Made by a program: the position numbers and the translations under genes. The notes under the pieces were generated by a model, which was not told the DNA's origin, did not search any database, and was given only the letters and a program-made list of their open reading frames with translations. Positions 32,990 through 34,613 of a DNA stretch of 39,990 nt are shown here, one piece after another. Source of the stretch: a virus. Its lineage: Duplodnaviria; Heunggongvirae; Uroviricota; Caudoviricetes. Every line of letters begins with the position of its first letter. The first letter of the stretch is position 1. The stretch is from IMG/VR virus record IMGVR_UViG_641736163_000010; one strand, 5' to 3'.

Positions 32990-34039
32990 TCAAACGATTA
33001 AATCCTGAACTTCCCTGACTGTCTGCTCAAAACGTCCGGTCTCCAGCTCAACGCCAATCGCACGACGCCCGAGCGCCAGTGCCGCTTTTACCGTTGAACC
33101 TGAGCCCATAAAAAAATCTGCAACCAGGTCACCCGGACGACTGCTTGCGCTGATTATCTGCTGCAGCATTTCTGCCGGTTTTTCGCACGGATGTTTCCCG
33201 GGATAGAACTGCACCGGTTTATGTGTCCACACATCCGTGTACGGCACCTGCGCCGTCACACCAAAATACCGCCGCAGATGCTTATATTCACTCTGCAGCT
33301 CCACATACTGCCGGTTCAGTGACGTATACGTATCCACCAGCTGGTGGTGGGGCTTTTCCAGTTCACCGCGCTGATGTTTCTCTTCTGCCACCCGGGCAAA
33401 CAGCGACTGTAATTTCAGATAATCGCTTTCGTTCGGTAGCTGCCACTGACTGGCACTGAACCAGTGCGACACCATGTTTTTCTTTCCTGTGGCATCTGCA
33501 ATCTGTTTTGCCGTTATCCCCAGGGCCGCGCGCGCATCACGAAAGTAAGAAATCAGCGGGGCCATCACATGCTGTTTCAGTGCACTGCCCTTCGCCGCAT
33601 ACCCGGCATCTTTCGGACGATACGGCCCCTGATAATGTTCCGCGAACAGAATGCGCTCTGTGGCGGGGAAATACGCCCGCAGGCTTTCCTTGTTGCATCC
33701 GTTCCAGCGTCCGGACGGCTTCGCCCAGATAATATGGTTCAGCACACTGAAGCGTTCACGCATCATGATTTCGATATCAGATGCCAGGCGATGACCACAG
33801 AACAGGTAAAGACTTCCGGCAGGTTTCAGCACCCGCCAGAACTGCGCCAGACACTGGTCCAGCCACTTCAGGTAATCATCGTCGCCCTTCCACTGGTTAT
33901 CCCAGCCCTCAGGCTTCACTTTAAAGTACGGCGGGTCCGTGACTATCAGGTCAACAGAATTTTCGGGTAACGACCGGATAAATTCCAGGCAGTCGGCGTT
34001 GATTAACTCACAACTGGATATTTTTACAGTATTAAGCAT
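32990..34039 (-). CDS. Orphan DNA methyltransferase (beta-class N6-adenine/N4-cytosine type; DPPY motif IV before C-terminal FxGxG motif I)
   Basis: 349 aa; ...VDLIVTDPPYFKV... and C-terminal ...DLVADFFMGSGSTVKAALALGRRAIGVE...; no adjacent restriction gene. Confidence 0.85.
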   Translation of the reverse strand: MLNTVKISSCELINADCLEFIRSLPENSVDLIVTDPPYFKVKPEGWDNQWKGDDDYLKWLDQCLAQFWRVLKPAGSLYLFCGHRLASDIEIMMRERFSVLNHIIWAKPSGRWNGCNKESLRAYFPATERILFAEHYQGPYRPKDAGYAAKGSALKQHVMAPLISYFRDARAALGITAKQIADATGKKNMVSHWFSASQWQLPNESDYLKLQSLFARVAEEKHQRGELEKPHHQLVDTYTSLNRQYVELQSEYKHLRRYFGVTAQVPYTDVWTHKPVQFYPGKHPCEKPAEMLQQIISASSRPGDLVADFFMGSGSTVKAALALGRRAIGVELETGRFEQTVREVQDLIV

Positions 34040-34133
34040 GGATCATTAAGCCTGTCTCTGATAGGCTCATTCTGCTTTTGCGCAAAGCAGTGGGCCTGAG
34101 GTTTGCTTGTGAACCCAACGCATGAGCAGATGG

Positions 34134-34160
34134 CTGGTGGGTGCCCCTAACACCCACCAG
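34134..34160 (-). other. 10-bp perfect stem-loop (ctggtgggtg/cacccaccag) in the leader of the methyltransferase gene
   Basis: Read from sequence; no U-tract on either strand, so not a canonical terminator. Confidence 0.4.
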
Positions 34161-34176
34161 CCGCCCATTTACCACA

Positions 34177-34203
34177 AATAAAAAAGCCTTCACTGCGGAA
34201 GGC
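34177..34203 (-). terminator. Rho-independent terminator (GCCTTC-cgcagt-GAAGGC + TTTTTTATTTG) overlapping the stop of the small ORF
   Basis: Read from sequence. Confidence 0.5.
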
Positions 34204-34387
34204 GTCTGTAACAACCGAACTGATAGTCTGCCAGATCCGCCATAACCAGCTGGGTCAGTATTAACTGGCAGCGTTCGCGTGAAAGGTAAGTATTCTGCGC
34301 TATCTCCCCGACTGTCGCCGGTTCGGTAACGCTTAATTCATTAAACACCACTCTGGCGGTTTCTGTCATATCCTGCTGTTTTAGCAT
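34190..34387 (-). CDS. Small hypothetical protein (65 aa) between tR'-like terminator and the methyltransferase
   Basis: Internal ATG with AAGGGA SD; MLKQQDMTETARVVFNELSVTEPATVGEIAQNTYLSRERCQLILTQLVMADLADYQFGCYRRLPQ; no family recognised. Confidence 0.4.
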   Translation of the reverse strand: MLKQQDMTETARVVFNELSVTEPATVGEIAQNTYLSRERCQLILTQLVMADLADYQFGCYRRLPQ

Positions 34388-34507
34388 GTCTTTTTCCCTT
34401 TTCCGGTTAACGTGACACACCAATAACTCTTGTCGAAAAAGCCAGCAAGCTGAAAGACAGGTATTCACCGCCACCAGCGCGTTTACTATACTGACGCGAT
34501 TTCAGTC

Positions 34508-34531
34508 ATAAAAAACCCGCCAGGCGGCGGG
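34508..34531 (-). terminator. tR'-like intrinsic terminator shortly downstream of the Q-like gene
   Basis: Minus strand CCCGCC-gcct-GGCGGG followed by TTTTTTAT, ~45 nt after the candidate late promoter. Confidence 0.5.
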
Positions 34532-34580
34532 GTGTAAAAAATCTTCTAACGTCAGGCATAAAACGCCCATCGTTAGAGCA

Positions 34581-34608
34581 AATTTACCACAGATTCGGGA
34601 AAAATCAA
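34581..34608 (-). promoter_or_regulatory. Candidate late promoter pR' (TTGATT-16 bp-TAAATT) directly downstream of the Q-like gene
   Basis: Hexamers read from sequence; position mirrors lambda pR' between Q and the late genes. Confidence 0.35.
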
Positions 34609-34613
34609 CAACA

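Follow-up and report, generated by a model that had tools for sequence, protein, structure and literature searches.

The 39,990-nucleotide stretch of tailed-phage DNA studied here (Caudoviricetes; IMG/VR virus record IMGVR_UViG_641736163_000010), called the window below, carries a DNA methyltransferase gene downstream of a gene for a Q-type late antiterminator. In the direction of transcription, the Q gene is followed by a promoter resembling the late promoter pR' of phage lambda, a terminator resembling lambda tR', an open reading frame (ORF) of 65 amino acids (aa), a second intrinsic terminator, a stem-loop, the 349-aa methyltransferase and transfer RNA (tRNA) genes. All of these features lie on the minus strand, as do those described below unless stated otherwise, and the interval from the Q stop codon to the methyltransferase gene is 574 nt. 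An original prediction made from the sequence alone had proposed that an orphan enzyme in this position is expressed only upon late-gene antitermination and protects progeny DNA from restriction. The enzyme belongs to a known family, its gene and the preceding signals recur as a conserved cassette, and its start codon is preceded by a conserved, base-paired leader.

The methyltransferase and its late-gene setting

The methyltransferase gene (34039-32990) had been described as beta-class (DPPY then FxGxG) and placed between Q and the tRNAs, and its coordinates, Pfam match and motif positions bear out both statements. Residues 29-340 match Pfam N6_N4_Mtase (PF01555, E=2.3e-44), the DPPY motif at residues 34-37 (TDPPYF at 33-38) precedes an FMGSG motif of the FxGxG type near residue 310, and the protein matches the PADLOC model MTase_II (E=4e-167). 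An in-frame UGA at positions -6 to -4 of the AUG excludes a longer N-terminus. The protein shares 331 of 350 aligned positions (95%, two gaps) with M.EcoGII, whose sequence was taken from the supplement of the SUPREM paper and was machine-read from a PDF with a few reading errors. Because some mismatches are such errors, the true identity is at least 95%. By comparison, M.EcoGI and M.EcoGII differ at 16 of 349 positions. Full-length identity of about 95%, together with the homology of the surrounding DNA block, makes the window gene a member of the M.EcoGI/GII family of beta-class N6-adenine DNA methyltransferases. Judged by its sequence, it is not a new orphan; it is a copy of a known M.EcoGII-type enzyme.

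The passages on M.EcoGII in Murray et al. (2018; PMC5778455) describe a beta-class enzyme of 349 aa, encoded by a prophage, that modifies adenine whatever the sequence context, is active alone and also acts on RNA and single-stranded DNA in vitro. According to the same passages, the enzyme is off in its native lysogen and harmful if produced constitutively, and its authors propose that it is switched on at prophage excision and defeats restriction. This view of late expression and anti-restriction is restated in a review (PMC12707154). The passages on M.EcoGII in PMC5778455 name a homolog in phage 1720a-02, and they make no mention of Q, terminators, tRNAs, an upstream small ORF or a leader RNA.

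The window enzyme and M.EcoGII/M.EcoGI of E. coli O104:H4 C227-11 have in common their family, a length of 349 aa, the beta-class motif order and a prophage location, which in the window is evident from the adjoining Q, RusA, NanS-p and tRNA genes. The window allele carries about 19 substitutions relative to M.EcoGII, mostly in the central region, and non-specific adenine methylation is the activity that its sequence would predict, as carried over from M.EcoGII.

PADLOC and Pfam searches of the neighboring ORFs identify no restriction endonuclease partner, in agreement with the original prediction. The neighbors checked were Q, RusA (35806-35432), a DUF968/HNH-like protein (36865-35819), the 65-aa winged-helix ORF, the tRNAs, an IraM-like gene and a NanS-p gene. 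Because none of them matches an endonuclease model, the methyltransferase is an orphan. The DUF968 protein has a weak HNHc_6 match (E=1e-4, under the Pfam cut-off) and a C-terminal CxxC...HH motif, and its counterpart just 5' of Q is called 'HNH endonuclease' in phage SfV (orf45) and bears a note of putative HNH-nuclease function in LLS. It was not taken as a restriction partner.

The Q gene (35435-34614) encodes a 273-aa protein of the Pfam Antiterm family (PF03589, E=1e-49) that also matches phrog_127 and phrog_25523, 'anti-termination protein Q-like', and is 95.6% identical to quuQ of Stx2_EH1910. The pR'-like late promoter follows at 34566-34608. Its -10 hexamer TAAATT (34586-34581) is identical to that of lambda pR', and a -35 hexamer TTGATT (34608-34603) lies 16 nt further 5'. 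In an alignment with lambda 44500-44630, GGTAAATTTG is identical to lambda pR', as is the initial transcribed sequence AACGATGGG (34574-34566), which matches the sigma-70 pause element. In lambda, the pR' elements form the late promoter and a sigma-70-dependent pause at which Q is loaded.

A transcript from this promoter is predicted to end after about 65 nt at the tR'-like intrinsic terminator (34531-34510), which was found in a terminator scan and consists of CCCGCC, GCCT and GGCGGG followed by U6. The SfV annotation lists the homologous hairpin of that phage as a terminator. The second intrinsic terminator, hairpin P0 (34203-34180), was found by the scan and by direct reading of the sequence and consists of GCCUUC, CGCAGU and GAAGGC, again followed by U6. 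Thus, the pR'/tR'-like signals that had been noted near Q are present, with a lambda-identical -10 hexamer and pause element, and the 65-aa ORF is indeed flanked by intrinsic-terminator-like sites, whose stems lie at 34531-34516 and 34203-34186 with T6 after each. In total, the region contains 15 terminator-like sites, compared to 4.9 +/- 2.2 in shuffled sequences. In a consensus scan, no minus-strand site resembling a promoter is listed between tR' and the methyltransferase.

The 65-aa ORF (34387-34190, ATG start; phrog_331) had been regarded as a small ORF in the methyltransferase leader. The ORF is there, but it is more than a part of the leader, since it encodes a conserved winged-helix protein. 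AlphaFold2 predicts three helices and a beta-hairpin wing (H-H-H-beta-hairpin topology) with a mean pLDDT of 91.3. Foldseek returns generic winged-helix matches only, at E about 2e-3, with the N-terminal domains of S-adenosylmethionine (SAM)-dependent O-methyltransferases at the top and MarR, IclR, Z-beta and SelB with SECIS RNA also among them. A sequence search of the PDB yields only a chance match (E=0.55), no family is found in Pfam, NCBIfam or PADLOC, and no similarity is detected to lambda orf-64 (64 aa, lambda 44621-44815), which occupies the same slot. The homologs number 329, some of which are named 'TrmB family' transcriptional regulator or 'DprA-like winged helix' in their sources. 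Cys40 and Cys59 are the only invariant cysteines among aligned close homologs (at least 78% identical), and identity falls to 35-40% in Xenorhabdus, Photorhabdus and Rosenbergiella.

This ORF lies directly 5' of the methyltransferase in 63 of 80 loci from many genera (tblastn, genome-contig scan). When viral loci are found via the small ORF instead, the methyltransferase is about 154 nt 3' of it in 73 of 74. The stop codon of the ORF sits in the P0 loop, and a hairpin of this kind recurs at the same position in other genera. Where the winged-helix ORF is missing, its slot holds unrelated cargo, such as a 220-aa ORF, or nothing. This pattern of homologs marks it as a genuine gene that accompanies the methyltransferase throughout the Enterobacterales without being indispensable for the cassette. 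In some loci lacking it, the ~700 nt 5' of the leader contain a 220-230-aa ORF, located downstream of Q, that may be a moron or a defense gene.

The leader of the methyltransferase gene

A stem-loop without a U-tract had been noted at 34134-34160. Its arms (34134-34143/34151-34160) are perfectly complementary, no U-tract follows, and the actual stem extends to 12 bp (34132-34143/34151-34162); the bases 3' of it are CCAUCUGCUC. The hairpin is not an isolated element, however, and forms one helix of a larger conserved RNA structure in the methyltransferase 5' leader (34175-34040). About 135 nt 5' of the ATG are conserved in Escherichia, Shigella, Klebsiella, Enterobacter, Salmonella, Citrobacter and Kosakonia, and also in Mixta, Buttiauxella, Providencia, Morganella and Proteus. 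The leader has a mean pairwise identity of 0.75 and the coding DNA one of 0.70, and relatives whose methyltransferases are 60-80% identical retain the leader at coding-level identity.

A covariance model of the leader, R1, was built from 82 sequences. It has a single match in the window (34181-34031, 145 bits, E~1e-34) and one match per related locus, on the sense strand and always ending at the methyltransferase start. A looser pattern scan of viral contigs gave 121 matches, of which 81 precede a methyltransferase homolog, nearly all 130-134 nt ahead of it; the rest are unrelated and arose by chance. A further 15 related loci lack the winged-helix ORF or have unrelated cargo in its place, and their leader is unchanged.

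The leader is non-coding, as indicated by one-base insertions and deletions, by the in-frame UGA just 5' of the start codon and by the lack of a conserved mini-ORF. A mini-ORF from the invariant AUG of AAAUGGGCG (consensus MGGWWVL) was considered and rejected; it runs for 7, 18 or 33 codons, its sequence is unconserved, and compensatory changes in the stems alter its residues. Rfam 15 has no match in 34031-34181 at gathering thresholds; P26, the best of the sub-threshold matches, lies on the opposite strand and scores 24 bits where the cut-off is 36. At E up to 10, neither SAM riboswitches nor riboswitches of any other Rfam family match the leader. With no family found at gathering or permissive thresholds, Rfam lends no support to a SAM-type riboswitch.

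In the conserved fold, helix P1 (34091-34167) pairs UGGGC at 34167-34163 with GCCCA at 34095-34091, as predicted by RNAalifold, and closes a three-way junction around P2 and P3. Helix P2 (34132-34162) is the 12-bp stem described above, formed by GGCUGGUGGGUG and CACCCACCAGCC around a 7-nt loop. Helix P3 (34102-34130) is formed by UCUGCUCAUG and CACAAGCAAA and has a variable apical loop containing RGRUCA. In a candidate pseudoknot (34040-34116), this loop (34116-34110) would pair with UGAUCC at 34045-34040, just 5' of the AUG. A further hairpin, P5, would pair 34069-34064 with 34052-34047 between the arms of the pseudoknot.

A nested model comprising P1-P4 was scored on 93 distinct sequences, with shuffles and slid registers as controls, and 88% of its cells are paired. 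In alignments fitted to the model, 15 pairs show compensatory change, compared to 9.2 in shuffles and 5-7 in slid registers. The number of cells with compensatory change is 128, compared to 36 in shuffles (none of 500 reaches the observed value) and 10-39 in slid registers, and the covariation score is 0.136, compared to 0.060 and 0.024-0.097, respectively. The same key covariations are found in a MAFFT alignment.

Both-sided changes occur in 8 of the 12 pairs of P2, one of which is seen as UA, AU, CG and GC, and in Providencia, Proteus and other relatives the P2 stems are wholly different, for example, CUGUAAAGGUG/CACCCUUACAG and ACAGUGAGGAUG/CAUCCCCGCUGU. Half of the ten P3 pairs show compensatory change, including the strongest single pair (CG 36, UA 21, AU 19, UG 5). 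Apical loops vary freely, in the case of P3 in both length and sequence, while the stems stay paired. P1 is paired in 100% of the sequences and, apart from one AU exception, does not vary. On the other strand, the many G-U pairs of the structure would turn into A-C mismatches, which assigns it to the sense transcript.

Covariation points less strongly to the pseudoknot and P5 than to P2 and P3. The pseudoknot joins the RGRUCA of the P3 loop to UGAUCY at -8 to -3, and 94% of cells pair; one of its pairs appears as AU 46, GC 12 and GU 12, and competing folds exist. One P5 pair appears as GC 55, AU 9 and GU 3. The GUGAGC segment can pair with GCUUAC to form P5 or with GGCCCAC, and the same column covaries with both partners. 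The GGCCCAC/GUGAGCC pairing, which is also an alternative to P1, has some support. This dual pairing hints at two alternative states, and lineage effects could also explain it. An extension of P2 (AUGGGCG/CGCUCAU) that is used in the single-sequence minimum-energy fold conflicts with P3 and is retained as a possible alternative state. A hairpin AUCAG/CUGAU just before the start codon was rejected in favor of P5 and the pseudoknot; its 5' arm often carries a U-to-C change, and in no case is there a compensating one.

The methyltransferase start has no Shine-Dalgarno sequence. The 3' tail of 16S ribosomal RNA (rRNA), GGAUCACCUCC, includes GAUCA, which is complementary to UGAUC. Since UGAUC can pair with either the 16S tail or the P3 loop, the loop may compete with the ribosome for this site.

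The leaders of Xenorhabdus and Photorhabdus are shorter (about 100 nt 5' of the methyltransferase) and are undetected by R1 (best E=0.12), so they were compared by eye and by single-sequence folding. They retain the hairpin with the small-ORF stop codon in its loop and a P2-like hairpin with very different stems. Their P2-like hairpin is often followed by a U-tract and is terminator-like, whereas in the window the U-tract follows the first hairpin. From the placement of the U-tract in both lineages it follows that a terminator between the small ORF and the methyltransferase has been maintained. Terminator function seems to have shifted between hairpins across lineages, and its maintenance fits selection for tight silence without Q.

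The terminator-like hairpin of Xenorhabdus also bears on the possibility that the stem-loop and leader are functionless, being a decayed terminator and spacer that seem conserved only through recent horizontal spread. The mobility of the cassette, its high similarity across many E. coli genomes and the invariance of much of the leader, which is uninformative on structure, are all compatible with such an origin. However, relatives with methyltransferases only 60-80% identical have kept the leader as well as the coding DNA, P2 and P3 have moved by compensatory substitution into quite different sequences beneath freely varying loops, and matches to the element other than chance ones are never seen away from a methyltransferase start. 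Neutral decay of a terminator is disfavored because the stems covary, and a leader without function is very improbable.

A more specific proposal is that the leader of about 135 nt represents an undescribed class of cis-regulatory RNA dedicated to M.EcoGII-type genes, in which a junction, a loop pairing and a two-state switch make up a post-transcriptional gate. Such an RNA would consist of the three-way junction of P1, P2 and P3 followed by hairpins. Its P3 loop (RGRUCAC) would resemble the 3' end of 16S rRNA and pair with the atypical ribosome-binding sequence UGAUC. The trigger of the switch would be the winged-helix protein, autoregulation by the methyltransferase or a metabolite. Added to Q antitermination, such a gate would guard an enzyme whose mistimed expression is lethal. 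This proposal as a whole is possible and is put forward tentatively.

Spread and surroundings of the cassette

Of 5426 complete E. coli genomes, 2521 contain the 1.6-kb segment, and a single genome can hold as many as eight copies. Many Shiga toxin 2 (Stx2) phages and 1720a-02 (95%) have a block annotated "hypothetical protein - DNA methylase - tRNAs" whose DNA is 94-95% identical to that of the window, and the same block in phiP27 has 86% DNA identity. The methyltransferase lies between Q and holin in SfV, mEp460, Citrobacter phage phiNP and LLS, and between Q and the tRNAs plus stx2 in Stx2 phages. The order Q, terminator, small ORF, methyltransferase and lysis or stx genes is annotated in SfV, mEp460, phiNP, LLS and the Stx2 phages; in phiP27, too, the methyltransferase is located between Q and lysis or stx genes.

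Homology to most Stx2 phages, 1720a-02 and phiP27 stops at about 34531, which is the foot of the tR' hairpin. Only Stx2_EH1910 shares the Q of the window, and this type of Q is present in 16 of 80 related viral loci. The exchanged unit therefore starts at the tR' hairpin, and the terminator seems to mark where recombination separates the Q/pR' module from the methyltransferase cassette. As far as these alignments indicate, the recombining unit consists of the tR' hairpin, the small ORF, the leader, the methyltransferase and, in some cases, tRNAs, and is inserted behind differing Q/pR' pairs.

Downstream of the methyltransferase, ARAGORN and the Rfam tRNA model identify tRNA-Met(CAT) at 32940-32865, which is annotated ileZ in related O157 Stx2a phages, and tRNA-Arg(TCG) at 32855-32779; the same tRNA genes are annotated in Stx2 phages. 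A third, truncated tRNA, argO-like with a UCU anticodon, lies at about 32705-32764 and is not called by ARAGORN or Rfam. Over its first ~58 nt it agrees base for base with the second tRNA-Arg of Stx2_EH1910, and its T-arm and acceptor 3' half are replaced where Stx-phage homology stops.

Two tandem copies of the small RNA STnc100 (RF02076; 32321-32514 and 31857-32045; 138 and 132 bits versus a gathering threshold of 47), each ending in its own terminator, occupy the position of stx2AB in related Stx2 phages. They are followed by an IraM-like anti-adaptor gene on the plus strand (31496-31831; NF007393, 158 bits) and a gene for a NanS-p-type sialate O-acetylesterase on the minus strand (29379-31250; DUF1737, SASA and DUF6645). 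IraM-like and NanS-p cargo is also located 3' of stx2 in Stx2_EH1910. Far from the methyltransferase locus, there is a full-length match to Rfam IS009 (RF02111; 1378-1576, 221 bits).

Control of the methyltransferase and comparison with known systems

Together, these features suggest that a layered lock, consisting of tR', the second terminator and a leader that hides the start codon, is opened by Q, and that the pay-off is promiscuous adenine methylation of progeny DNA. We assign this reading a probability of about 0.6. In the lysogen, transcripts from the constitutive pR'-like promoter would halt at tR'. Any read-through past this point would encounter the second terminator at the end of the small ORF, and residual mRNA would carry the folded leader of about 135 nt, with its 3' part paired with the bases just 5' of the start codon. 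The toxic enzyme would be kept off by three layers, since tR', the second terminator and the folded leader would each block expression. Upon induction, Q-modified RNA polymerase would pass both terminators, and the winged-helix protein and methyltransferase would be made alongside the products of the lysis and morphogenesis genes. The enzyme would methylate adenines of replicating phage DNA in any sequence context, and the methylated progeny would be shielded against many restriction systems of the next host.

The anatomy of the locus supports dependence on Q, and the two upstream terminators are consistent with silence in the lysogen. On good grounds, we infer that the methyltransferase depends on Q, because its promoter is lambda-like, two terminators intervene and no promoter-like site on the same strand lies between them and the gene. 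The folding of the leader around the start codon suggests that it may serve as a translational gate, and anti-restriction would be the probable benefit.

In phage Mu, the start site of mom is hidden by RNA structure and is opened by Com. The winged-helix protein might likewise bind the leader, most likely at P2 and its invariant flanks, and expose the methyltransferase start, such that the enzyme is translated only once its small upstream partner accumulates. This gate would refine the control by Q outlined above rather than exclude it. An ORF of about 65 aa directly 5' of a toxic late DNA-modification gene is reminiscent of com, and its co-inheritance with the methyltransferase (63 of 80 and 73 of 74 loci), the lack of a Shine-Dalgarno sequence and the potential of positions -8 to -3 to pair with the P3 loop would fit such a gate. 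Winged-helix domains can bind RNA hairpins, as represented by SelB with SECIS RNA among the fold matches, and a parallel between Mom and M.EcoGII has been drawn in a review (PMC12707154). However, the unchanged leader in the 15 loci without the winged-helix ORF implies that it can work without this protein, which is moreover not a zinc finger of the Com type. Xenorhabdus and Photorhabdus, conversely, retain the ORF though most of their leader differs. On balance, a gate operated by the winged-helix protein is rather unlikely.

Several points weigh against the broader reading, in which Q opens a lock formed by terminators and leader. The pR'-like hexamers match 8 of 12 consensus positions and are absent from the list of sites produced by the consensus scan. 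The Q protein is of the PF03589 type and not of the lambda type, and homology to lambda pR' is therefore no proof that this Q acts there. A literature search found no paper that links M.EcoGII to Q, late genes, induction or mitomycin. For the leader, compensatory changes were counted in alignments fitted to the model, which works in its favor, P1 is unproven because covariation neither supports nor contradicts a near-invariant helix, and both the pseudoknot and P5 compete with other plausible pairings. Finally, another phage methyltransferase, that of PA8, also works with a small winged-helix protein; its substrate is 16S rRNA, and it modulates induction instead of shielding DNA (Gong et al. 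2023; PMC10810198).

In an alternative raised by the PA8 example, the methyltransferase has the 65-aa protein as a subunit or targeting factor. The pair would then modify RNA, such as rRNA, or certain forms of DNA, and would serve to adjust prophage induction or host physiology and not to protect progeny DNA. The PA8 enzyme, of the MT-A70 type, co-purifies and cross-links 1:1 with the small winged-helix protein encoded just upstream, and the resulting complex favors 16S rRNA as its substrate and increases both spontaneous induction and virulence (PMC10810198). The methylation of RNA and single-stranded DNA by M.EcoGII in vitro, as described in the passages on this enzyme in PMC5778455, would suit such a role, as would the SAM-dependent O-methyltransferase domains that head the Foldseek matches. 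These matches are generic, however, and the same passages present M.EcoGII alone as fully active and non-specific. The PA8 system is not homologous, having DPPW and an MT-A70 fold versus DPPY and N6_N4_Mtase, its partner protein PNB-2 aligns with the 65-aa protein at a BLASTP E of 0.11 over 25 residues, and its genes are located near the attachment site and not in a late operon. A subunit role is distinctly improbable.

The enzyme and its presumed purpose are already known, and the idea of late expression and anti-restriction is already published. What appear undescribed, according to Rfam 15 and the literature search, are the late-operon wiring behind two terminators, the co-inherited winged-helix gene and, above all, the structured leader; this search found no account of how the M.EcoGII gene is controlled within a phage. 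The methyltransferase finding is thus ordinary, and the regulatory module is a moderately interesting lead. M.EcoGII is a widely used reagent, and the cassette, which almost half of the complete E. coli genomes contain, lies directly 5' of stx2 in many Shiga-toxin phages. If the methyltransferase is expressed late, the phage DNA released by induced cells should be methylated at every adenine, with consequences for host range, for escape from restriction and for sensitivity to Type IV nucleases that depend on N6-methyladenine. An RNA gate with a dedicated winged-helix partner, if real, would show how a phage handles a self-toxic enzyme, and a compact natural off-switch of this kind could aid the safe expression of M.EcoGII-type enzymes. 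If the leader does nothing, the locus is one more copy of a known gene.

Among known systems, com-mom of Mu resembles the window cassette, by the properties of M.EcoGII, in that a toxic adenine-modifying enzyme is silent in the lysogen, is made late and is encoded after an ORF of roughly 60 aa. The small protein is a winged helix here and a zinc finger in Com. A terminator and about 135-150 nt separate the small ORF from the enzyme gene in the window, whereas com overlaps mom. Antitermination by Q, as deduced here, would take the place of the Mu C activator and Dam/OxyR. In addition, the enzyme is a methyltransferase and not Mom, and the leader persists without the small ORF.

The PA8 pair M.EcoPA8orf6770P/PNB-2 is similar in that a phage methyltransferase gene lies just 3' of a small winged-helix gene; the two are co-transcribed, and the partner changes the choice of substrate (PMC10810198). 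In contrast to the window enzyme, M.EcoPA8orf6770P is an MT-A70 protein of 208 aa with a DPPW motif, and PNB-2 has 143 aa and no sequence similarity to the 65-aa protein. The PA8 genes are close to attL, and the induction signal reported for them is the approach to stationary phase.

Type II restriction-modification systems with C proteins also carry a small protein with a DNA-binding fold 5' of the modification gene, and in both cases the timing of the methyltransferase matters. No endonuclease was found here by PADLOC or Pfam, the small protein is a winged helix and not an Xre-type helix-turn-helix, and terminators and a structured RNA lie between the two genes.

In the late control region of lambda, the short constitutive transcript from pR' to tR' is known as 6S RNA. 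StxS, a short transcript of the Stx2 phage Sp5, is said to have been described by Sy et al. in 2020 and is reportedly comparable to this pR'-tR' transcript. The window follows the same plan, with Q, then a promoter that matches lambda in its -10 hexamer and AACGATGGG, then a terminator about 65 nt on. It differs in that its Q is of the PF03589 type, and the promoter spacer, which contains the Q-binding element in lambda, is different. The first cargo after tR' in lambda is the unrelated orf-64, whereas in the window this slot is taken by the winged-helix ORF and the methyltransferase.

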